From: an uncultured beta proteobacterium
GTDB lineage: Bacteria; Pseudomonadota; Gammaproteobacteria; Burkholderiales; SG8-41
Length of the DNA: 64,000 nt
Direction: 5' to 3'
Assembly (NCBI GenBank): GCA_963699525.1
Contig: CAVOUI010000012.1
Span: forward strand, 47,839 to 111,838
Translations under genes and position numbers: made by a program
The notes under the pieces: model-generated
Seen by the model: the letters and a program-made list of their open reading frames with translations, nothing else
What the model was told of the DNA's origin: nothing
Databases searched by the model: none
Shown: piece after piece, positions 5,627 to 58,165 of the stretch
How the letters are laid out: each line of letters begins with the position of its first letter
How positions within the stretch are numbered: position 1 is the first letter of the stretch

Positions 5627-7897
5627 TCACTCGAGAACACCGAGGGTGACGATGCTTTGCGGACTATTGCCCGCGGCGAACGGGCTATTCGCGATCGCCG
5701 TTAACGCACCGGTGGCCGGGTTGATCGCATAGGCGGAAATGCTGTTGTTGTTGATACCGGAATTCGCGGCATAGGCGAACCTACCGCTGAAGTCCACGGT
5801 TACCGATCGCGGTTCCAGGCCTGCGGCGAAGGGGCTAGGCAGCGTCAGCGCACCGGTGGCGGCGTTGATCCCGTAGGCGGAGATGCTGTTGGAGCCGTTG
5901 TTCGCCACGTAGACAAACCGTCCGGCCGGGTCGACCGTCACCGACCAGGGCGTCAAGCCCGCGGCGAATGGGCTTCCGGTAATCAGGGTCAGTGCACCCG
6001 TGACGGAGTCGATCGAATACGCCGATACGCCGGAGCCACCGCTGATGTGCGTCACGTAGACGAAGCGCCCGTTTGGGTCCACCGTCACCGACCGAGGGCC
6101 CTGGCCTGTCAGGATTGTGCCTATCGGCGTGAGAGTGCCCGGATTGAGGATCACACCCGTATCAATCCGGTAGGCCGAAACGCTGTTGCCCTGAAAATTC
6201 GCCACGTACACGAACCGCCCGCTCGGGTCCACCGTTACGGAAACGGGGTCGTTCCCAGCGGCATATGGGCTGGCCAGGCCGGCGAGGACCCCGTTATTCG
6301 GGTCGATCGAGTAGGCGGAGACGCTATCGGAGCCAAGATTCGCTACGTAGAGGAACCGCCCGCTCGGGTCGACGGCGACGGACTGGGGCCCGGACACAGC
6401 GGCAACCCCGCCGGAGAACGGGCTTCCCGGCACCGGCGTCAGGGCCCCTGTGCCGGGGTTGATCGCGTAGCCCGAGAGATTGTTGGAACCGGCGTTAGCG
6501 GCGTAGACAAATCTTCCCATCGGATCGGCGGCGACCGATAGCGGCGTGTCCTCCGTGAGGCTGTTGCCGGCCGGCGCCAGAGCGCCCGTGGACGCGTTGA
6601 TCGTATACGCGGAAACCGAGTTGCCCACGCTGTTCGCCGCATAGGCGAATCTGGGCCGGAAGACGAGCGGCGCCGTTCCCTTGCTCACGGCGACGGATCT
6701 CGGAGCCGACTGGGCACTGACGGTTGCGGAACTCGCGAGTGGCGTGAGCGCGCCGGTCGCGTTGTTCAGCCGATACATGGAGACGTCGTTCGAGGCGACA
6801 TTCGTCACGTATACAAACTGACTGCTCGGATCGACGGCAACTGAGCGGGGGCTGCTGCCCGCCGGGAACGGACTTCCACCGACCGGCATCAGCACCCCGC
6901 TGGCCGCGTCGATCGTGAAGGCGGAAACCGTTCCGGAGACCTCATTCGTCGCGTACACAAATTGCCCGCCCGCGTCCACGGCAACGCTGCTGACACCGCT
7001 GCCGGCAAGAAACGGGCTTCCGGCCACGGGCGTCAGCGCCCCGGTGGCCGCGTCGATCCGGTATACGGATACGTTGTTTGAGGCGCCATTTGCCGCCACG
7101 ACGAACCGCCCGCCCGGCTCGACCAGGACCGACTGGAGACCCGATTCAGCGGCAAACGGGCTGCCGGGCACCGGCGTCAGAGCACCGGTGCTGGTGTTGA
7201 TCGAATACGCCAAGATCTTTTTGTCGAGGAGATTGCTGGCCGCCACGTAGGCGAATCGGCCGCCCGGATCCACGGCCACGGAGAGGGGATTGGTGCCCGT
7301 CATGAACGGGCTCCCCGGCGCCGGAGTCAACGCGCCGGTGGCCGCGTTGATCGTGTAGCCGGAGATCGTGTCGGAAAGCTGGTTCACCGCATAAGCAACG
7401 CGCCCTGCCGCATCCACGGCCACGGATATCGGGCTATTGCCTGCAGCGAATGGGCTGCCCGCAACGGCAGTCAGCGCCCCGCTCGTGGGGTTGATCGTGT
7501 AGGCCGCGACGGCGCCCGCGTTGACATTGCTTGCCACAAAGACAAACCGGGCGTCGGCGTCCATCGCGACGGACGCGGCTCCCGGGATACCCGCGACGTA
7601 GCCGCGTGGCCGCAACTGGCCGGTGGCGGCGTCGACGGCGAAGATGGAGACTGAACTTTCCTGACCGTTGGCCACGTAGGCAAAGCGCGGCGCAGTTACC
7701 GTGGCTGGCGGCGGCATTCCACCGCCACCGCCACCGCCACCGCCTCCACCACCGCACGCAGCGAGGGCGATGGAAACCAGGAGCAGCGATGTCTTGAGAA
7801 ATCGGTGTTTCAATCCGTTCGCGATCCCGGATTGCCCCGGCGGATCGTCGAGGGCAGGGCAGTACGAAATCGCGGCTGAGTTTTTCGGTTCCATCAT
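5627..7897 (-). CDS. Lipoprotein with ~14 YVTN/lactonase-type beta-propeller repeats (two predicted 7-bladed propellers); the likely true start is TTG at 7813
   Basis: Repeats of the form YVAN..SN.VS.Y.ID..TGALTPV.GSPF.AG..P.SVAVDPSGRF.Y; lipobox LLLVSIALAAC followed by a G12 linker. Confidence 0.8.
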   Translation of the reverse strand: MMEPKNSAAISYCPALDDPPGQSGIANGLKHRFLKTSLLLVSIALAACGGGGGGGGGGGGMPPPATVTAPRFAYVANGQESSVSIFAVDAATGQLRPRGYVAGIPGAASVAMDADARFVFVASNVNAGAVAAYTINPTSGALTAVAGSPFAAGNSPISVAVDAAGRVAYAVNQLSDTISGYTINAATGALTPAPGSPFMTGTNPLSVAVDPGGRFAYVAASNLLDKKILAYSINTSTGALTPVPGSPFAAESGLQSVLVEPGGRFVVAANGASNNVSVYRIDAATGALTPVAGSPFLAGSGVSSVAVDAGGQFVYATNEVSGTVSAFTIDAASGVLMPVGGSPFPAGSSPRSVAVDPSSQFVYVTNVASNDVSMYRLNNATGALTPLASSATVSAQSAPRSVAVSKGTAPLVFRPRFAYAANSVGNSVSAYTINASTGALAPAGNSLTEDTPLSVAADPMGRFVYAANAGSNNLSGYAINPGTGALTPVPGSPFSGGVAAVSGPQSVAVDPSGRFLYVANLGSDSVSAYSIDPNNGVLAGLASPYAAGNDPVSVTVDPSGRFVYVANFQGNSVSAYRIDTGVILNPGTLTPIGTILTGQGPRSVTVDPNGRFVYVTHISGGSGVSAYSIDSVTGALTLITGSPFAAGLTPWSVTVDPAGRFVYVANNGSNSISAYGINAATGALTLPSPFAAGLEPRSVTVDFSGRFAYAANSGINNNSISAYAINPATGALTAIANSPFAAGNSPQSIVTLGVLE
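7705..7757. repeat. (CCACCG)n/(GGN)n hexanucleotide simple-sequence repeat encoding the poly-Gly linker of the propeller lipoprotein
   Basis: ccaccgccaccgccaccgccaccgcctccaccaccg. Confidence 0.8.
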
Positions 7898-50886: not shown

Positions 50887-51243
50887 TCAGTGCTTGGGCT
50901 TGATACAGCCGGCGAATGATTGGACCGCAATCCTCCCATCGCGCACGACGAACGTGTCCGTGACGAGTTCGTACACGTTGTCGGCGGTCTCTGCCGACCA
51001 CAGGATGTATCCATGGTCGCCCTCGACCGACAGGTGTTTCAGGTTGAACGCTGCACCCGGCTTTCCAAATTCCGCGAGCATCGCCTGGAACAACGGTCGG
51101 ATTGCGCCGACGCCCCTCAAGGGACCCTCCGGCGTGAACAGTACGGCGTCCGGCGCATAATCAGACAGGATGCCTCCGAGGTCACGCGCGCCAAAGCATT
51201 TCAGGTGGTTGTCGATCACGTCCCGGGTTGAGCGCTTTGTCAT
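50887..51243 (-). CDS. SnoaL-like (NTF2 superfamily) protein
   Basis: 118 aa. Confidence 0.6.
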   Translation of the reverse strand: MTKRSTRDVIDNHLKCFGARDLGGILSDYAPDAVLFTPEGPLRGVGAIRPLFQAMLAEFGKPGAAFNLKHLSVEGDHGYILWSAETADNVYELVTDTFVVRDGRIAVQSFAGCIKPKH

Positions 51244-51251
51244 GACGAGCC

Positions 51252-52121
51252 TCAACGCTTGGTAATGACGACTTCCAGATACTCGCCCGGAACGACCAGC
51301 GACGCGGATCCCGCCGTGTTGAGCCGGTTGAGCAGCGCCGCAATGTCCTGAGCGAGCGCCGCTTGCCGTGCGGGGTCGAGCGCCGCGAACGCCTTGTGCG
51401 TCGGCCCGTAGTAGTCGCGGAAGATCTGCAGCCAGTGCGCCACCGAGTGATAGCGGAAGTTGAAGTTCCTGCGCTCGGCGCGGATGTCCGTGGCCTGGGC
51501 GCCGAACAGGTCGGCGATGTGCGCCTCGGTGCCCCACAGCGCGGGCGATTTCAGGCCCTCGGGCGCCGGCAGGTAGGCGCCAATGACCTTGAACAACTGC
51601 CCGATGAAGCCTTCCGGGGTCCAGTTGGCGAGCCCGATGCGGCCGCCGGCGCGCACCACGCGCAGCATCTCGCGCGCGGGCCGCGTGTGGTCGGGAGTGA
51701 ACATCGCGCCGAACGTGGAGAGCACCACGTCGTAGGTTCCGTCAGCGAATGGCAGGTCTTCCGCGTCCGCCACCTGGAATTGGACGTCCAGTCCCTCGGC
51801 CTTCGCCCGCGCTGCCCCTTTGTCGAGCAGGTGCGGCACGTAATCGGTGGAGGTCACCCGCGCGAAGCGGCGGGCGGCCGCCAGGGTGGCGTTGCCGTTG
51901 CCGGCTGCGACGTCCAGCACGCGCTCGCCGGCGCGCACGTCGGCCGCCTCCGCCAGCGACTCGCCGACGATCTGCAGCGTCGTGCCGATGACCGCGAAGT
52001 CGCCGCTCGCCCAGGTGGCCTGCTGGCGTTGCTTGATCGCGTTGAAATCAACCCCGGGTTTCATGACAGTCGGCGCCTTCGCCGGGGCGGCTGGTGCGCG
52101 AACTTCCAGTTCAAGACTCAT
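51252..52121 (-). CDS. Class I SAM-dependent methyltransferase
   Basis: VLDVAAGNGN motif I; AGGAG Shine-Dalgarno. Confidence 0.8.
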   Translation of the reverse strand: MSLELEVRAPAAPAKAPTVMKPGVDFNAIKQRQQATWASGDFAVIGTTLQIVGESLAEAADVRAGERVLDVAAGNGNATLAAARRFARVTSTDYVPHLLDKGAARAKAEGLDVQFQVADAEDLPFADGTYDVVLSTFGAMFTPDHTRPAREMLRVVRAGGRIGLANWTPEGFIGQLFKVIGAYLPAPEGLKSPALWGTEAHIADLFGAQATDIRAERRNFNFRYHSVAHWLQIFRDYYGPTHKAFAALDPARQAALAQDIAALLNRLNTAGSASLVVPGEYLEVVITKR

Positions 52122-52200
52122 GTGCGTGCTCCTGGTTATGGTTGCCCGGGGCTTCCGGCCCCGGAACGGTGGATCCGCAAACGCGGTTTCCATGCGCTCG

Positions 52201-52295
52201 TTTCGTGAGCGGCAGTATCGCGGGAGACGGCCGGCGGGTGTTGATCGTGCGTCCGGCATTTTTGCGCGGGACTCCGGACTTCCGGATCGCGCGGC
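52201..52295. promoter_or_regulatory. Repeated intergenic element, copy A (TCCGG inverted repeats), upstream of the methyltransferase
   Basis: ~85% identical to 54785-54872; GTCCGGC-N15-ACTCCGGACTTCCGGAT. Confidence 0.5.
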
Positions 52296-52310
52296 CGGAT
52301 CGCAGGAGGG

Positions 52311-52880
52311 CTACAGATTCCAGCGGTACGGGTAGTCCATCTGGGTCGCAATTCGGTCACGCGCATCCGAACCCGCCAGTCTCTGCACCAGGTGCAGGCC
52401 CATATCGATGGCAGATGAAACGCCGCGTGCGGTAACGATGTCCCCTTCGTCGACTACCCGTTCGCGCACGACCACGCGACAATAGGGCTCGAGCTCCTCA
52501 TAGGCGCTGGGATGTGTTGTCGCACGCCGGCCTTGAAGAAACCCTGCGGCTCCCAGCAGCAGAGCGCCGGTGCAGACCGAAACCTTCAGTGGCACTGACC
52601 GGGCCGCTTTGAGCCAGTCGATGAACGCACGGTCATGCTGCAGGTCCCGGGTGCCGAAGCCGCCGGGCACAAAAAGCATGTCGTAGGAATCGAGGCGCTC
52701 GTTTACCGCGTCCGCTTCGATACGCAGGCCCCGATCATCGACGACGCGCCGCGTCGGTGCGCAGATGCGCCATTCGAAATCGTCGATGATCTTCATGGAT
52801 TTCAGGCGCGTCATGGGGTCGTAGAATCCGATGAAATCCAGAGACGTCATGCGGTCGAATACGACGAAAGCGGCTTTCAT
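52311..52880 (-). CDS. DJ-1/PfpI-family protein
   Basis: Nucleophile elbow VCTGALLLG. Confidence 0.8.
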   Translation of the reverse strand: MKAAFVVFDRMTSLDFIGFYDPMTRLKSMKIIDDFEWRICAPTRRVVDDRGLRIEADAVNERLDSYDMLFVPGGFGTRDLQHDRAFIDWLKAARSVPLKVSVCTGALLLGAAGFLQGRRATTHPSAYEELEPYCRVVVRERVVDEGDIVTARGVSSAIDMGLHLVQRLAGSDARDRIATQMDYPYRWNL

Positions 52881-52954
52881 ACATTGGCCCTCTCTACCTG
52901 GAGTGCGCCCCAACGTGAGCCGTGTTGGTGGCGTTGTGAGCCGTCACTCGCGCG

Positions 52955-53263
52955 CTACCGTTTCTCGGGCGGTATGGTTCTGATCGAAGCTGAGAACGCC
53001 GCGTGAGCTGCCGGCTCGACCGGTCTATGCCTGACCCGGGTGCTCGCTGGATCCTTGCCGAGGAAGTTGTCGCCTTTCCAGTTCCTCGACGGCCTGATCG
53101 GCCTGGGAACAAAACCACCGCCGCAGTTCGGGCAGACGTTTCCCAGGACATTCTCGACACACGTCGCGCAAAACGTGCACTCGTAGCTGCAGATGCGCGC
53201 TTCGAGCGAGTCGGGTGGCAGAGCCTTGTTGCAATGCTCGCACGTGGGCCTGAGCTCCAGCAT
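52955..53263 (-). CDS. DUF1272 zinc-ribbon protein
   Basis: CEHC...C..C...CPNC. Confidence 0.6.
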   Translation of the reverse strand: MLELRPTCEHCNKALPPDSLEARICSYECTFCATCVENVLGNVCPNCGGGFVPRPIRPSRNWKGDNFLGKDPASTRVRHRPVEPAAHAAFSASIRTIPPEKR

Positions 53264-53291
53264 GGTGCGCTCCTCGCCGCGTCACGGTCTC

Positions 53292-54704
53292 TCAGGCCGG
53301 GATGATATTCTGGTTCACGCTGAACAGGTTGGCCGGGTCGTAGGTGCGCTTCACCTGGGCGAGGCGATCGTAGTTCGGACCATAGGCGCTGCGCACGCGC
53401 TCACCCTCATCGGCAGTGAGAAAATTGACGTAGACGCCGCCGCTGGCGTACGGCGCCGAGGCCTTGAAGAAATCGCGCGCCCAGCCGATGCCGCGCTCGT
53501 CGTCAGAGGGGTCATCCCAGCGGCCGTGGACGTTCATGACGAAACGGGTGTCGCGGTGGGCGTACGCCGCGGCGCCGGGCGCCGGCCGGGTGGTGGCGCC
53601 GCCGAGGGCAGCCAGGAAGATCTCGCACTGGGCCGACGGCAGCTTCCCGGCGTACTCGATGACGGCTTCGAACAGCCTGTCGTCGAGCACCGAGAAATTG
53701 TGGGACTTCCAGTAGTTGCGTGCCCCGGCCGTTAGGAGCGGGTCGAAGGCCTGCTGCCAAGCCGCGTAGGGCTGCACGCCCACGTGCTCGCCGACAACGG
53801 TGCCGAACTTGCGCAGCGGTGCGATGAGCGGCTCGCCCTGAACCGGATCTCCCGCGTAAAAAACCGCGAGCGCGATGATCTCCTTGCCGTGCATCTTCTC
53901 CGGGAGAAACGGCAGGGGAGGGGCCCGGCGCACGACGGCCCACACGGTGAGCTCGTCCGGCGCCGTCGCCATGAATTCGCGATACCGCCGCAACACCAGC
54001 TTCGCCTGAGAAAGCGGGTAGACGATGAGCCCGCTCAGCACATTCGGGCCGACGGCGTGGAGCCTGAATTCGAAGCGGGTGATGACGCCGAAATTGCCGC
54101 CGCCACCCCGGATGGCCCAGAAGAGGTCGGGATGCTCCGTCGCACTGACGCGCACCACCTCGCCGGCTGCGGTCACGACCTCGGCGGATTCGAGGTTATC
54201 GATGGTCATGCCGTACTTGCGGCTGAGCCAGCCGAACCCGCCGCCGAGCGTCAGGCCGGCAATGCCGGTGGTGGAGTTGATGCCTACCGGCGTGGCGAGG
54301 CCGTGGGCCTGCGTGGCAGCGTCGAGGTCTGCGAGCGTGGCGCCGGCCTCGATGGTGACGCGGCGCGAGCCCGGGTCGACGTCGGCGGCCTTCATCTGCG
54401 ACAGGTCGATCACGATACCGTCGTCGCACACGGCATTGCCGGCGATGTTGTGCCCGCCACCGCGCACGGCGAGCGGGAGTCCATTGTCCCGAGCGAAGTT
54501 GACCGCGCGGACGACGTCCGACGTGGAGGCACAGCGGACGATGAGCGCGGGGTGCTTGTCGATCATTGCATTCCAAATCTTGCGCGCGGCTTCATAGGCA
54601 CCGTCGTGCGGAAGAACAACGTGCCCGTTGAGGGCCCGTTTCAACTCTTCAATTCTGGCGGCGAGTTGCCGCGGCGGCGCGGCCTTGACAGCAGTAATCG
54701 ACAT
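53292..54704 (-). CDS. FAD-binding (BBE/PCMH-type) oxidoreductase
   Basis: FAD_binding_4 core (AVRGGGHN) plus a BBE-like C-terminus; GAGGAA Shine-Dalgarno. Confidence 0.8.
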   Translation of the reverse strand: MSITAVKAAPPRQLAARIEELKRALNGHVVLPHDGAYEAARKIWNAMIDKHPALIVRCASTSDVVRAVNFARDNGLPLAVRGGGHNIAGNAVCDDGIVIDLSQMKAADVDPGSRRVTIEAGATLADLDAATQAHGLATPVGINSTTGIAGLTLGGGFGWLSRKYGMTIDNLESAEVVTAAGEVVRVSATEHPDLFWAIRGGGGNFGVITRFEFRLHAVGPNVLSGLIVYPLSQAKLVLRRYREFMATAPDELTVWAVVRRAPPLPFLPEKMHGKEIIALAVFYAGDPVQGEPLIAPLRKFGTVVGEHVGVQPYAAWQQAFDPLLTAGARNYWKSHNFSVLDDRLFEAVIEYAGKLPSAQCEIFLAALGGATTRPAPGAAAYAHRDTRFVMNVHGRWDDPSDDERGIGWARDFFKASAPYASGGVYVNFLTADEGERVRSAYGPNYDRLAQVKRTYDPANLFSVNQNIIPA

Positions 54705-54784
54705 GTTTGTTCCTCTATATGTGGTGGTTGTCCGGAGCCCCGGCCCGAACCGGCGCCATCGCGAGCGACGTGTCCGCGTGCCTG

Positions 54785-54872
54785 TTTTCGGGAACGGCAG
54801 TATTGCGGAGTCCGGGTGACGCGAGTTGATCGAGCGTCCGGCGTTTTTGCGCGTGACCCCGGACTTCCGGAT
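54785..54872. promoter_or_regulatory. Repeated intergenic element, copy B, in the divergent FAD-oxidase/AraC intergenic region
   Basis: See copy A. Confidence 0.5.
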
Positions 54873-54882
54873 AATTCGCGGT

Positions 54883-55869
54883 ATGGACGCCCTTTCCGAT
54901 GCACTCCGAGTGCTGCGGCTGACCGGCGCGGTGTTCCTCGACGCGGAATTCACCGCGCCCTGGTGCGTCGTCTCCCAGTCCGGCCATTCGACTTCGCCGG
55001 TCTTGTCCGGCGGGGCCAACATCGTGTTCTTTCACGTGCTCACCGAGGGGCGCTGCAAGGCGCGGCTCGTGACCGGCGGGGAGACGCTGGAATTCGCGGC
55101 GGGTGACCTGGTCATGCTGCCGCGCGACGACACGCATCTTCTCGGCAGCGATCTGCACCTGGCGCCGACGCTGGCCGATACCCTGGTGCAACCTGCGGCG
55201 GACGGCGAGTTGATGCGCATCGAGCACGGCGGCGGCGGCGAGAGGACCCGCTTCGTCTGCGGTTTTCTCCGCTGCGACCAGCGCCTGTGCGGGCCGATGC
55301 TGGAGACGCTGCCGCGGCTCCTGCGCGTGCCGCTGGGCGACGGCCCCGCCACCGCCTGGCTGACGAGCTTGCTCCACGCGGGAACACGGGAAACCTCCGC
55401 ACCCCGGCCCGGCGGGGAGACCGTGCTCGCGAAGCTCTCGGAGCTGCTCTTCGTCGAGGCGTTGCGCCGCTACATCGAGTTACTGCCTGATCAGCAGACC
55501 GGATGGCTCGCCGGCTTGCGCGACCGTTTCGTGGGCCGCGCGCTCGCGCTGATGCACGAGCGCCCCGAGCGCGACTGGACGGTGGAGGAGCTTGCCGCGG
55601 CCGTCGGCCTGTCGCGCTCAGCGCTCGCTCAGCGGTTCACCGATTTCATCGGGCAGCCGCCGATGCAGTACTTGACGCGCTGGCGGCTCACCATCGCCGC
55701 GCAGAGGCTGCGCAGCGAGAAGGCGAGCCTCGCGCGCATCGCGGAGGACAGCGGCTACGATTCGGAAGCGGCGTTCAACCGCGCCTTCAAACGCGCGCTC
55801 GGCACCACGCCGGCGGCGTGGCGCAGGGGCGGCCGCGCGGGACACGCGTCACGCGTCGCCCATCACTAA
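54883..55869 (+). CDS. AraC-family transcriptional regulator (cupin N-terminus plus HTH)
   Basis: C-terminal AraC HTH (GYDSEAAFNRAFKRALGTTP). Confidence 0.85.
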   Translation: MDALSDALRVLRLTGAVFLDAEFTAPWCVVSQSGHSTSPVLSGGANIVFFHVLTEGRCKARLVTGGETLEFAAGDLVMLPRDDTHLLGSDLHLAPTLADTLVQPAADGELMRIEHGGGGERTRFVCGFLRCDQRLCGPMLETLPRLLRVPLGDGPATAWLTSLLHAGTRETSAPRPGGETVLAKLSELLFVEALRRYIELLPDQQTGWLAGLRDRFVGRALALMHERPERDWTVEELAAAVGLSRSALAQRFTDFIGQPPMQYLTRWRLTIAAQRLRSEKASLARIAEDSGYDSEAAFNRAFKRALGTTPAAWRRGGRAGHASRVAHH

Positions 55870-55872
55870 TCG

Positions 55873-56776
55873 CTACTTTCGTAACCGATACCACGGATGC
55901 GGCTGCCCCGGCAGCTTGACTCGCAGGGTGTAGACCGAGGTATACGCGCAGCAGAAGAGCGTCCGCAGGTCCGGGCCGCCGAACGCAAAGTTCACCGCCT
56001 GCTCGGGGAAGCGGATGATCCCGATGCGCTTTCCGCCGGGGGTGAAGACCCAGATGCCGCCCGGCCCGGTGCAGTAGACGCGCCCCTGCGAGTCGACCTT
56101 CAGCCCGTCGGGGATGCCGCGCTCCGTGCCCTCGTTCATGTCGGCGAAGATGCGCCGGCCCGTCATGGTTGCCCGCGGCGTCGAGCTCGATTGCGTGGAT
56201 GTATTTCGAGGAGCGGGTATTGGCGACGTAGAGCGTGCGCTCGTCCGGCGAGAACGCGAGGCCGTTCGGATACTCGCAGTGCGCCGCGACACTCACGGCG
56301 CCATCGGGCGCGACGCGATAGACGCAGGCGCCGTCCCAGAGATTGTCGATGCCGGCCGGGCCGGGTATTTCCCGCTCGGCGTAGGGCACGCGCTTGTCCG
56401 GGTCGGTGAAATAGAGGCTGCCGTCGGAGCGGCACACCACGTCGTTCGGGCGGTTGAAGCGCCCGCCCTGGTAGCGATCGGCCACGATGACGACCTTGCC
56501 GTCGGGTCCGGTGCGCGTGACCTTGCGGCCGTCGCCCTCGCACACGATGAGGTTGCCCTTCAGGTCGAACGTGGTGCCGTTGCCCCCCTCCGTTTTGCGG
56601 ACGAGGTCGGGTGCTTGCCCGGGGCGGATCCGGTGCAGGTGATTGCGCCGGAGATCCACGAAGTACCAGTAGCCGTCCGGGTGCCACAGCGGCCCTTCCG
56701 TGAAAATGAACCCCGTCGCGAGGCGCTCGGCTTCGACGGTCTCCAGGACATCGGGAAGATAGTTCGCGGCAGACAT
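55873..56776 (-). pseudogene. SMP-30/gluconolactonase/LRE-family protein, frameshift at ~56160
   Basis: N-terminal 200 aa in ORF 55787-56776; the C-terminus is in the 55873-56292 frame. Confidence 0.65.
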
Positions 56777-56917: not shown

Positions 56918-58165
56918 ATGAGCGAAGCGGAAGCGGGACAGGTGCGCGAGACGGTGGCCGCCGTCTACCGGTCGGAGTCGCGTCGCGTCTTCGCCACTCT
57001 CATCCGCCTGCTCGGCGACTTCGATCTCGCGGAGGAGGCGCTGCACGAGGCCTTCCGGGCGGCGCTCGAGCAGTGGCCGCGCGAGGGCATCCCCGCGAAT
57101 CCCCGCGCGTGGCTCGTGTCGGCCGGCCGCTTCAAGGCGATCGACGGAATCCGCCGCAACGCGCGGTTCGATCCGCTCGACGAGGACGCCGAGAACATTG
57201 CGGGGAATGACGATCCGGAGTCGTGGGCGGCTGACGAAATCGAGGACGACCGGCTGCGGCTGATCTTCACCTGCTGCCACCCGGCCCTCCCGCCGGACGC
57301 CCAGGTGGCGCTGACGCTGCGCGAGGTGTGCGGCCTAACGACCGAGGAGATCGCGCACGCCTTTCTCACTGCCGCGCCGACCCTTGCACAGCGCATCGTG
57401 CGCGCGAAGGGAAAGATCCGCGACGCGAAGATTCCCTACCAGGTCCCGGCGCAGGCGGACCTGCCGGAGCGGCTGGACAGCGTGCTGCGCGTGATCTACC
57501 TGGTGTTCAATGAGGGCTATTCCGCATCGTCGGGAGCGACGCTCACGCGGCACGACCTGTCGGGCGAGGCGATTCGCCTTGCGCGGCTGCTGGTCGAGCT
57601 GCTGCCGGAGCCCGAGGCAATCGGGCTGCTCGCGCTGATGCTGCTCCACGAATCGCGCCGTGCCGCGCGCGCCTCAGCGACGGGCGACCTGATCCTGCTG
57701 GAGGAGCAGAACCGCACGCTTTGGGACCGGGACATGATTGCCGAAGGCACGGCGCTGGTGGAAAGGGCGCTTGCAACACGCCGCATGGGTCCGTATACGC
57801 TGCAGGCGGCGATCTCCGCGGTGCACGCCGGGGCGACTCGGGCGGACGCGACGGATTGGGCGCAGATCGTGGGCCTGTACGACGTGCTGGCGCGAGTCGA
57901 GCCCTCGCCGGTCGTCGAACTCAATCGCGCGGTGGCGGTCGCAATGCGCGACGGTCCCGAGCCCGGCCTCGCGCTGATCGACGCGATCCTCACGCGCGGG
58001 GAGCTCGCGGACTATCGCCTCGCGCACGCGGCGCGGGCGGATCTGTGCCGACGGCTCGGGAGGACGGCCGAGGCCAGGGCTTCCTACGAACGCGCGCTCG
58101 CGTTGACGCACGGCGAGCCGGAACGGCGCTTCCTCCAGGGCCGGTTGGTTGAACTTAAGAAATAA
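56918..58165 (+). CDS. ECF-type sigma-70 family factor with a long C-terminal extension (415 aa)
   Basis: Sigma-2 and sigma-4 regions plus a ~230-aa C-terminal domain. Confidence 0.8.
   Translation: MSEAEAGQVRETVAAVYRSESRRVFATLIRLLGDFDLAEEALHEAFRAALEQWPREGIPANPRAWLVSAGRFKAIDGIRRNARFDPLDEDAENIAGNDDPESWAADEIEDDRLRLIFTCCHPALPPDAQVALTLREVCGLTTEEIAHAFLTAAPTLAQRIVRAKGKIRDAKIPYQVPAQADLPERLDSVLRVIYLVFNEGYSASSGATLTRHDLSGEAIRLARLLVELLPEPEAIGLLALMLLHESRRAARASATGDLILLEEQNRTLWDRDMIAEGTALVERALATRRMGPYTLQAAISAVHAGATRADATDWAQIVGLYDVLARVEPSPVVELNRAVAVAMRDGPEPGLALIDAILTRGELADYRLAHAARADLCRRLGRTAEARASYERALALTHGEPERRFLQGRLVELKK

Follow-up and report, generated by a model that had tools for sequence, protein, structure and literature searches.

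A probable bidirectional control region shared by an AraC-family regulator gene and its divergent targets, present in two copies around a three-gene block

An intergenic element of 87 nt is found twice in the 64-kb stretch of DNA analysed here (the window), once upstream of a methyltransferase operon and once between a flavoprotein oxidase operon and the divergently transcribed gene for an AraC-family regulator. We consider it likely that this element is the bidirectional control region of the regulator gene and its divergent targets, and that it was duplicated around a three-gene insertion. Below, we lay out the comparative evidence for this proposal, together with several alternative readings of the same DNA.

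The two copies, A (52201-52287) and B (54786-54872), lie on the same strand with a start-to-start distance of 2585 nt, and align without gaps at 71 of 87 positions (82% identity). A repeat search of the window returned one family with two copies and nothing else similar in the 64 kb, and a 29-nt core, GTTGATCGNGCGTCCGGCNTTTTTGCGCG, has exactly two occurrences in the window and none in 100 dinucleotide shuffles. When the window was scanned with an HMM built solely from orthologous elements of other organisms, the two copies were recovered at E = 5e-18 and 1e-16, with the next match at E > 0.2. The repeat is real, far beyond chance; an earlier, sequence-only reading of this DNA had described it as an element of about 95 bp present twice, which these searches bear out with an aligned length of 87 nt. 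That reading carried copy A from 52201 to 52295; its start stands, while the homology stops at 52287, and the right flanks of the two copies show no similarity to each other. On the left, weak homology runs on through the 5' UTRs of the methyltransferase gene (52122-52200, minus strand) and of the FAD-oxidase gene (54705-54785, minus strand; z = 3.9), and the duplicated unit therefore measures about 165 nt. The methyltransferase 5' UTR holds a GC hairpin, CCGGGGC-TTCCG-GCCCCGG, at 52146-52164.

Copy A follows the stop of a DJ-1/PfpI gene (52311) at a distance of 23 nt, and lies 79 nt upstream of the start of a SAM-methyltransferase gene (52121, minus strand). The operon that it presumably controls (50887-52121, minus strand) consists, according to Pfam, of the methyltransferase (51252-52121) and a SnoaL_2 protein (50887-51243). 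Copy B separates two divergent genes, one for the FAD oxidase (start 54704, minus strand) and the other for AraC (start 54883, plus strand), and the two copies are separated by a three-gene block (52311-54704, minus strand) in which Pfam identifies a FAD_binding_4/BBE oxidase (53292-54704), a DUF1272 protein (52955-53263) and the DJ-1/PfpI protein (52311-52880). Pfam annotation thus agrees with the placements first proposed for both copies, upstream of a minus-strand SAM-methyltransferase gene and between divergent FAD-binding oxidase and AraC genes.

The gene adjacent to copy B (54883-55869, plus strand) encodes an AraC/XylS-family protein with a double helix-turn-helix DNA-binding domain, matching Pfam Cupin_6 (1.5e-45), HTH_18 (4e-22) and HTH_AraC (9e-16), and we take it as the presumed cognate regulator of the element. 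Its best NCBIfam match is RclR (NF040475 equivalog), at 124.7 bits against a curated cutoff of 400 and with the model aligned to residues 118-316 only, so that the protein is distantly RclR-like and falls short of full RclR membership. Homologs of the subfamily number in the thousands among soil Burkholderiales. A PDB search returned relatives for the DNA-binding domain only, and a literature search found neither a published study on this large AraC subfamily nor a usable operator for RclR or Cupin_6 regulators or leaderless AraC genes.

About 100 related loci were compared. In 80 metagenome and 4 genome loci with AraC relatives, each ortholog of at least about 66% identity has the element immediately before its start, once per locus. 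In uncultured Burkholderiales it constitutes the intergenic region between the RclR-like AraC gene and a divergent methyltransferase or FAD-oxidase gene. The commonest arrangement has the methyltransferase gene (minus) divergent from the AraC gene (plus), with the FAD-oxidase gene (minus) in its place at some loci, and the linkage of methyltransferase and AraC genes is kept in more than 25 loci. In most relatives the three-gene block is missing at this position, and the two genes directly adjoin in divergent orientation. Two copies flanking an inserted block are found only in the window and its closest relative (L001), which has an identical gene order, and a related clade (L029-L034) carries the same module duplicated in tandem. 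Homologs at 54-57% protein identity still have TTGCGCGgGACGCCGGAAtt upstream, and the motif therefore tracks the regulator family. The sequence-only reading had named a lack of conservation in related genomes among the things that would count against it, and conservation is what the regions upstream of AraC orthologs display.

This distribution bears on the proposal of a dispersed repeat (REP or MITE-like), or else of a vestige of coding sequence, for instance from an N-terminally extended AraC protein. Gene callers do often give versions of the homologs of 347-350 aa that start inside the element, and RPAFLR.TPDFRI can be translated from both copies in one frame. The distance from GATAAT to ATG is 6, 7 or 8 nt among orthologs, however, which breaks any reading frame; all protein homology begins at MDALS, and AraC coding sequence is wholly absent from copy A. 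As for a dispersed repeat, a 20-nt pattern run against 185,579 species genomes gave only 22 matches, one per genome, and the 4 of these that are true elements all adjoin an AraC ortholog. The genome-collection and HMM scans agree on one copy per genome with true matches always beside the AraC gene, only two copies occur in the 64 kb, and the repeat search reported no inverted repeat at the element ends. The dispersed-repeat class was rejected on these scans of species genomes, the window and all loci, and we regard the repeat-or-remnant explanation as a whole as extremely improbable.

The layout of the element among orthologs is AGTATC -N21- TTGATCG..CGTCCGGCGTTTTTGCGCG.GAC.CCGGA.TTGCCGATAAT -N7- ATG of the regulator, and conservation falls in discrete blocks, namely AGTATC, TTGATCG and CGTCCGGCGTTTTTGCGCG.GAC.CCGGA.TTGCCGATAAT. 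The spacer between AGTATC and TTGATCG is fixed in length (20-21 nt) and free in sequence, as expected for promoter plus operator DNA. The AGTATC block is (nearly) invariant in 27 orthologous elements, and on the minus strand of copy A it reads GATACT (52214-52219). We predict this hexamer to be the -10 of a leftward promoter for the methyltransferase, with transcription starting near 52207 and about 86 nt of 5' UTR. In copy B the hexamer in the same column reads AATACT (54799-54804, minus strand), the predicted -10 of the leftward FAD-oxidase operon promoter, with a start site predicted near 54792. A conserved -35 at normal spacing is absent from the leftward promoter, which is therefore probably activator-dependent.

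In the other direction, the predicted promoter of the AraC gene (54847-54875, plus strand) consists of TTGCGC (54847-54852), a 17-nt spacer and GATAAT (54870-54875). The proposed -35 matches the consensus at just 3 of 6 positions, and the -10-like hexamer is conserved in orthologs. Considering that only 7 nt separate GATAAT from the ATG (54883) and that there is no Shine-Dalgarno sequence, the regulator mRNA is probably leaderless. Indeed, among 29 distinct upstream regions from orthologs of at least 66% identity, 28 have GATAAT, CATAAT or TACCAT 6-8 nt before the start codon and no Shine-Dalgarno sequence. The counterpart of this promoter in copy A (52262-52290, plus strand) keeps TTGCGC (52262-52267), but the homology ends after GAT and the -10 reads GATCGC (52285-52290), so the rightward promoter of copy A is presumably disabled. 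A strict sigma-70 consensus scan of 51900-55100, the kind of promoter prediction that the sequence-only reading had proposed, called no promoters. Readings as sigma-54 or ECF-type promoters were rejected, since spacing and conservation, as judged by eye, do not fit. The scan also called a plus-strand terminator-like hairpin within copy A (52235-52255); as a terminator it was rejected, being unconserved in orthologs and downstream of no plus-strand gene.

Within the element, conservation and self-similarity point to a candidate regulator-binding region with two CCGG cores 21 bp apart. In copy A (52241-52281) it can be read as two direct-repeat units of 20 nt each, 52241-52260 and 52262-52281 (TTGnnCGnGnnnCCGGnGTT), and it can also be read as the inverted repeat GTCCGG-N17-CCGGAC (52251-52279). 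Counted from the leftward start predicted above, this region extends from about -34 to -74. Should GATACT indeed be the -10, unit 1 would cover about -34 to -53 and abut the leftward -35 position. In copy B (54826-54866) the units are 54826-54845 and 54847-54866, with CCGG cores at 54838-54841 and 54859-54862, and the region runs over the -35 and spacer of the promoter predicted for the regulator gene itself. The core resembles itself best at a shift of 21 nt (0.46), a periodicity that is not significant alone (shuffle p = 0.09), and the consensus contains a perfect 8-bp inverted repeat, TCCGGCGT-N11-ACGCCGGA (shuffle p = 0.0055). Covariation tables drawn up for the direct- and inverted-repeat models showed clear covariation in neither and did not tell the two apart. 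The inverted repeat GTCCGG-N17-CCGGAC had already been picked out from the letters and is indeed present in both copies (in B at 54836-54864). The palindrome CCGGACTTCCGG, stressed at the same time, holds as CCGG-N4-CCGG and fails as a full palindrome, because its centre, ACTT, is not self-complementary. The third CCGG in it is derived (at the two changed positions, 25 and 22 of the 27 orthologous elements have TTGCCGAT), and the palindrome is partly lineage-specific.

Which protein would occupy these boxes? Our reading, drawn from the sequence, is that the two CCGG-containing boxes are the binding site of the regulator. Perhaps they are bound instead by another protein, for example one of LysR type (consensus with a T-N11-A inverted repeat), and the perfect 8-bp inverted repeat, with its 11-nt spacing, points more to symmetric dimers than to the direct repeats of classical AraC sites. 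Inverted half-sites are nevertheless used by AraC-family proteins such as RhaS and RhaR. Moreover, the motif occurs solely beside orthologs of this AraC gene and persists to 54-57% protein identity, and a LysR-type gene is absent among the neighbour genes of the element. A different binder seems to us quite improbable.

The element could also act as RNA, either as a 5' leader or as an intercistronic element within a read-through transcript of FAD-oxidase, DUF1272, DJ-1 and methyltransferase genes. Copy A lies between same-strand genes, lacks an obvious minus-strand terminator and may be transcribed; the minus-strand fold of 52201-52310 gives z = -1.95; and the weak homology reaches into both 5' UTRs. 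Yet Rfam returned zero matches over 51000-56000 even at E <= 1, RNAalifold on 18 orthologs gave -5.8 kcal/mol on either strand with 0 compensatory pairs, and the remaining single-sequence folds have z between -1.0 and +0.5. It is the primary sequence that is conserved, with the spacer sequence free. The RNA-structure prediction that had been suggested for this element thus uncovered no conserved fold by Rfam, RNAalifold or fold z-scores, the class of cis-regulatory structured RNAs was rejected on these grounds, and we hold the RNA explanation to be very unlikely. The related suggestion of a duplicated 5' leader survives only weakly: a low-identity extension does run into the two 5' UTRs, but the 87-nt core precedes the leftward start as predicted here and has no RNA-structure signal.

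Returning to the control-region proposal, the two predicted promoters and the two boxes suggest the following arrangement. A leftward promoter with the -10 GATACT (minus strand), probably dependent on an activator, would be served by a regulator-binding region of about 40 bp, with its two CCGG boxes 21 bp apart, at about -34 to -74 from the leftward start. The rightward regulator promoter, TTGCGC-N17-GATAAT, would overlap the second box and fire 7 nt before the ATG, yielding a leaderless mRNA, and the overlap of this promoter with the second box would probably result in autoregulation. In most relatives, one control region would serve both the methyltransferase operon and the regulator gene. 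In the lineage of the window, the FAD oxidase-DUF1272-DJ-1 block would have come to lie between them with the control region in two copies, such that copy B would drive the FAD-oxidase operon and the regulator gene, and copy A, cut off in the -10 of the regulator promoter, would keep the methyltransferase-SnoaL operon under the same control. The two operons probably answer to one regulator. The original suggestion of a shared operator or promoter module of an AraC regulon is supported comparatively by the fixed position, by conserved blocks that read as two divergent promoters with a two-box site, and by the retention of these blocks in both copies.

The conservation of each copy was assessed over 47 columns conserved at >=85% across the 27 other elements. 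Copy A keeps 42 of the 47 and copy B 45, with 32 and 26, respectively, of 43 variable columns. Three of the five misses in copy A are the final 3 nt of GATAAT, past the end of homology. Over the part that it retains, copy A matches at 42 of 44 conserved columns, among them those of both CCGG cores, TTGATCG and TTTTTGCGCG; its spacer has diverged to about 69%. Considering that nearly all conserved positions are kept, both copies are probably functional. For copy B this conservation is partly trivial, because the regulator's own promoter falls inside it.

An alternative is that copy A is an inherited methyltransferase promoter only, its operator part a decaying relic, so that only copy B would be regulator-active and the operons would not be co-regulated. 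Several observations fit such decay: copies A and B are no closer to each other than copy B is to the elements of other organisms, copy A matches the consensus better at conserved than at variable columns without reaching significance (Fisher p = 0.097), a G->A change (CCGGCA, not CCGGCG) alters a base that 25 of the 27 elements share, and the rightward promoter -10 is lost. Set against these are the 42 of 44 conserved columns kept next to a spacer diverged to about 69%, and the ancestral single-copy layout, which puts the same boxes upstream of the methyltransferase promoter; because the boxes precede that promoter in the ancestral layout, the methyltransferase gene would already have been served by them. 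We judge a relic copy A to be unlikely, and favor two working copies of the control region.

How did the copies come to resemble each other? Copy A is 100% identical to copy A of L001, which is of little weight because the two genomes are 95-100% identical across the region anyway, and it is 87% identical to the methyltransferase-AraC intergenic element of another relative (L010). Copy B is as close to the elements of other organisms as to copy A, and the likeness of A and B therefore reflects shared constraint more than recent copying. Two derived bases are common to copies A and B (TTCCGGAT). Recent gene conversion as the source of the A/B similarity is only weakly supported; it would account for these shared derived bases, but copy B is equally near to foreign elements. 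Between the window and L001, copy B is the single sharply diverged segment (63-72% identity) within 51.2-56.4 kb, which is otherwise 95-100% identical. No mobile-element hallmarks were seen at the rearrangement. A bolder reading, which we offer as speculative and rather doubtful, is that the promoter-operator unit of about 165 nt is a portable cassette of the RclR-like subfamily, with recurrent and ongoing rewiring of a small detoxification regulon through operator duplication and turnover and a conserved leaderless, autoregulated regulator gene. On this reading the unit would have been duplicated independently at least twice, once in dispersed form (window and L001) and once in tandem (L029-L034), and the divergence of copy B would be part of the same turnover.

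The control-region proposal offers a model of operator and promoters that can be put to the test in a large AraC subfamily of soil Burkholderiales, and ties a set of recurring genes (methyltransferase, SnoaL, FAD/BBE oxidase, DUF1272 and DJ-1) into one probable regulon. It also suggests a simple way for an operon to be recruited into a regulon, through a control region duplicated upon gene insertion. For annotation, the many gene models that give these regulators 347-350 aa probably set the start codon too far upstream, within the operator. Conceptually, little here is new and the regulation is ordinary for bacteria, because divergent AraC-type control regions are textbook material.

The closest textbook parallel is araC-araBAD of E. 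coli, in which the AraC-family gene is likewise divergent from its target operon. At P_BAD, AraC occupies araI1-I2, at about -34 to -74 from the start (I2/I1 layout), and the candidate site described here would likewise comprise two units of about 20 bp, 21 bp apart, at about -34 to -74 and abutting the predicted -35 position. The region also extends over the predicted promoter of the regulator gene, a hint of autoregulation like that of P_C. The systems differ in that the regulator here carries a Cupin_6 sensor domain rather than an arabinose-binding domain, no distal O2-type looping site is evident, the site is equally readable as an inverted repeat, the regulator mRNA is apparently leaderless, and the module is present in two copies.

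A second parallel is with RclR, the nearest named NCBIfam family. In E. coli (RclR-rclABC) and P. aeruginosa (RclR-rclX), RclR is an activator of the AraC family whose sensor domain is a non-sugar one, and it controls neighbouring stress or detoxification genes (PMC7464077), and the putative targets here (flavoprotein oxidase, DJ-1 and methyltransferase) also look like detoxification enzymes. The target genes themselves are different, however, and the N-terminal part of RclR, which holds the redox-sensing Cys-21 and Cys-89 (PMC7464077), is unmatched in the regulator described here. Finally, the presence of one control region at two operons after the insertion of a gene block resembles regulon growth by promoter-operator duplication.

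That the element occurs twice, as the sequence-only reading claimed, is borne out by three approaches. A repeat search of the window recovered a two-copy family at 52201-52287 (copy A) and 54786-54872 (copy B), which aligns over 87 nt without gaps, at 82% identity and on the same strand. In addition, a 29-nt core pattern has exactly two matches in the window versus none in 100 shuffles, and an HMM trained only on orthologous elements from other organisms recovered copies A and B at E = 5e-18 and 1e-16, with no third match in the 64 kb below E = 0.2. Copy A had been placed at 52201-52295; the start stands, but homology stops at 52287. The right flanks of the two copies are unrelated. On the left each copy adjoins a 5' UTR, and these two UTRs show weak homology (z = 3.9), which brings the duplicated unit to about 165 nt.

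By ORF and Pfam analysis, copy A lies between a SAM methyltransferase gene (MT, 51252-52121), followed by a SnoaL_2 gene (50887-51243), and a block comprising DJ-1/PfpI (52311-52880), DUF1272 (52955-53263) and a FAD_binding_4/BBE oxidase (FADox, 53292-54704), all on the minus strand. Copy B separates FADox from the plus-strand gene for an AraC-family regulator with Cupin_6 and HTH_18 domains (54883-55869). A minus-strand start codon lies about 80 nt downstream of the left end of each copy, and the right end of copy B is 10 nt from the regulator ATG. Beyond the regulator, an SMP-30/gluconolactonase (SGL) gene (55873-56776, minus strand) occupies two reading frames with a break near 56160-56290, its N-terminal half in ORF 55787-56776 and its C-terminal half in ORF 55873-56292; the counterpart in the near-identical locus L001 is a single intact 300-aa ORF (6348-7250), and the split reflects either a frameshift that has made the gene a pseudogene or an error of sequencing or assembly. 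An ECF sigma factor of SigJ-like architecture, combining a DUF6596 domain with TPR repeats, is encoded roughly 1 kb past the regulator gene, at 56918-58165; its position is kept in L001 and L099.

When the window proteins were mapped onto 80 retrieved metagenome loci, the usual arrangement proved to be MT (minus) and AraC (plus) genes divergent and directly adjacent, separated by 145-290 nt. FADox (minus) adjoins AraC (plus) in a few loci, and in L013 and L021 MT lies immediately downstream of FADox. The gene order of the window was found only in L001, which shares 95-100% nucleotide identity with it over most of 51.2-56.4 kb (94.6% in the main 7.6-kb alignment). The sequence-only reading had made its case depend in part on further conservation in related genomes, and such conservation is found: BLAST and HMM searches placed a single element immediately upstream of the AraC start in all orthologs down to about 66% identity, and two copies in the window and L001 only. 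A scan of CCGGCRTTTTTGCGCGNGAC against 185,579 species genomes gave 22 matches, never more than one in a genome. Four of these are true elements, all adjoining an AraC ortholog in Burkholderiales or Gammaproteobacteria MAGs, and the remaining 18 have unrelated surroundings (rough chance expectation from genome size, about 9 or more). This result argues for a locus-specific control region and, with the locus searches, leads us to reject a dispersed repeat. DJ-1 and DUF1272 genes occur near this regulator at other loci too, a recurrence that speaks for a functional connection among the genes. TTGCGCGgGACGCCGGAAtt is still found upstream of the regulator in homologs at only 54-57% identity, tying the motif to the regulator family; we consider it improbable that the conserved boxes are bound by a protein other than the adjacent AraC-family regulator.

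Phylogenetic footprinting gives the consensus order GGCAGTATC, a spacer of 20-21 nt that is fixed in length and free in sequence, GTTGATCGagCgTCCGGCGTTTTTGCGCGaGACgCCGGAgTTGCCGATAAT, 6-8 nt and ATG. The predicted leftward -10 (copy A, 52214-52219; copy B, 54799-54804) is GATACT, the minus strand of AGTATC, and has the important A2 and T6. Transcripts would start near 52207 and 54792, with 5' UTRs of about 86-88 nt ending in good Shine-Dalgarno sequences. The footprinting alignment contains no conserved sequence at the -35 spacing (17±1 nt further upstream), and the lack of a conserved -35 suggests that the leftward promoter relies on an activator. The regulator's own, rightward promoter is predicted to be TTGCGC-N17-GATAAT (54847-54875), ending 7 nt ahead of the ATG; its proposed -35 fits consensus at only 3 of 6 positions, and a strict consensus scan of the region around both copies called no promoter.

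Of 29 distinct upstream regions (orthologs at >= 66% identity), 28 have a -10-like hexamer 6-8 nt ahead of the start codon and lack a Shine-Dalgarno sequence, from which we infer that the regulator mRNA is leaderless. Since the distance from -10 to ATG varies among 6, 7 and 8 nt, the stretch is apparently not translated. A coding remnant was rejected, as this spacing is out of frame among orthologs and protein homology begins at MDALS in all loci. Conservation and variable spacing together indicate that the ATG at 54883 (MDALS...) is the true start. Database models of these regulators (P0001, P0003, P0017 and others) are often 347-350 aa long, with a TTG or GTG start within the candidate operator, such as the TTG at 54826 (region 54826-54882); their N-terminal extensions are probably annotation errors.

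A structured RNA was also rejected: there is no Rfam match at E <= 1, 18 orthologs folded together in RNAalifold reach about -5.8 kcal/mol for both strands and show 0 compensatory pairs, and single-sequence fold z-scores run from -1.95 to +0.5. The MT 5' UTR contains a GC-rich hairpin, CCGGGGC-loop-GCCCCGG (52146-52164, minus-strand mRNA sense), with a counterpart at about 54731-54760 in the FADox 5' UTR. This module, including related CCGGG...CCCGG forms, also occurs in L010, L007, L013 and L014 and is absent from L005, L012, L099 and L101; whole-UTR fold z-scores for the hairpin-bearing 5' UTRs are not significant.

A CCGG core is conserved at two places spaced by 21 bp, between and overlapping the predicted promoters (copy A, 52253-52256 and 52274-52277; copy B, 54838-54841 and 54859-54862). 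The candidate site can be read as two 20-nt direct repeats, TTGnnCGnGnnnCCGGnGTT, with self-similarity highest at a shift of 21 (0.46 vs <= 0.37 at other shifts; shuffle p = 0.09). It can equally be read as an inverted repeat, TCCGGCGT-N11-ACGCCGGA, which in the consensus is perfect over 8 bp (shuffle p = 0.0055); covariation tables favour neither reading. Counted from the predicted start of leftward transcription, the first unit covers about -34 to -53 and the second about -55 to -74, an arrangement that araI2 and araI1 also have at P_BAD. Because the second unit begins with the predicted -35 of the regulator's promoter, occupancy should also alter the regulator's own transcription. The comparative evidence supports the shared operator or promoter module proposed earlier; the palindrome emphasised there is partly lineage-specific.

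Are both copies intact? Among 27 other elements, 47 columns are conserved at >= 85%; 45 of these are kept in copy B and 42 in copy A, and three of the five copy A misses are the final 3 nt of GATAAT, exactly at the end of homology. Copy A has GATCGC there and so lacks the rightward -10, as fits its position with no regulator gene on its right. Consensus is matched at only 26 of 43 variable columns in copy B and 32 of 43 in copy A. Identity between the copies is 92% across the conserved right half and falls to 69% across the left half, where the predicted leftward -10 and the spacer of free sequence lie. Elements of other organisms resemble copy B as closely as copy A does (that of L012, for example, at 92% over the right half), so the A/B similarity reflects shared constraint more than recent copying.

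The nearest matches to copy A with its left flank are the intergenic regions between MT and AraC in L010 (87%) and L012 (85%), and copy B is of the same type (80% and 82%, respectively). The simplest account is that an ancestral MT-AraC control region was duplicated as the FADox-DUF1272-DJ1 block came between MT and AraC, with a breakpoint that would lie inside the -10 of the regulator promoter. A 9-nt direct repeat, CCGGATCGC (52282-52290 and 52295-52303), coincides with the right-hand junction of copy A, a few nucleotides short of the stop codon of DJ-1 (52311-52313), and may be a microhomology trace of that rearrangement. Compared with L001, the window is 100% identical in copy A and, within 51.2-56.4 kb, most strongly diverged in the copy B region (63-72% identity; lowest elsewhere, 74%). 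The diverged stretch, 54720-54840 (copy B and the FADox leader) versus about 5195-5320 of L001, could reflect local recombination or replacement, or fast turnover of this control region. A separate tandem duplication of the right-hand module, independent of that in the window and L001, is found in the clade L029-L034 (about 66% regulator identity), at 4835-4945 in L029, 5889-5990 in L034 and also in L030-L032. Its modules, TTTGCGCGAGCCGCCGGTTTTGCCG and TTTGCTCAATCCGCCGGTTTTGTCG, are 61 nt apart, so each divergent promoter may own one copy.

How does this system compare with known ones? Regulator homologs number thousands, the closest in uncultured soil Burkholderiales, and PDB relatives cover the DNA-binding domain only. 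The best named NCBIfam relative is RclR, an AraC-family activator of neighbouring stress genes (PMC7464077). The match (124.7 bits against an equivalog cutoff of 400, over residues 118-316 only) makes the regulator a distant relative and not RclR itself, and a literature search found no published operator for this subfamily. Comparative sequence evidence supports the element as a predicted promoter-operator region of the AraC-family type, whose duplication would place two operons under shared control. It is a known kind of system, resembling the classical divergent control region of araC-araBAD.
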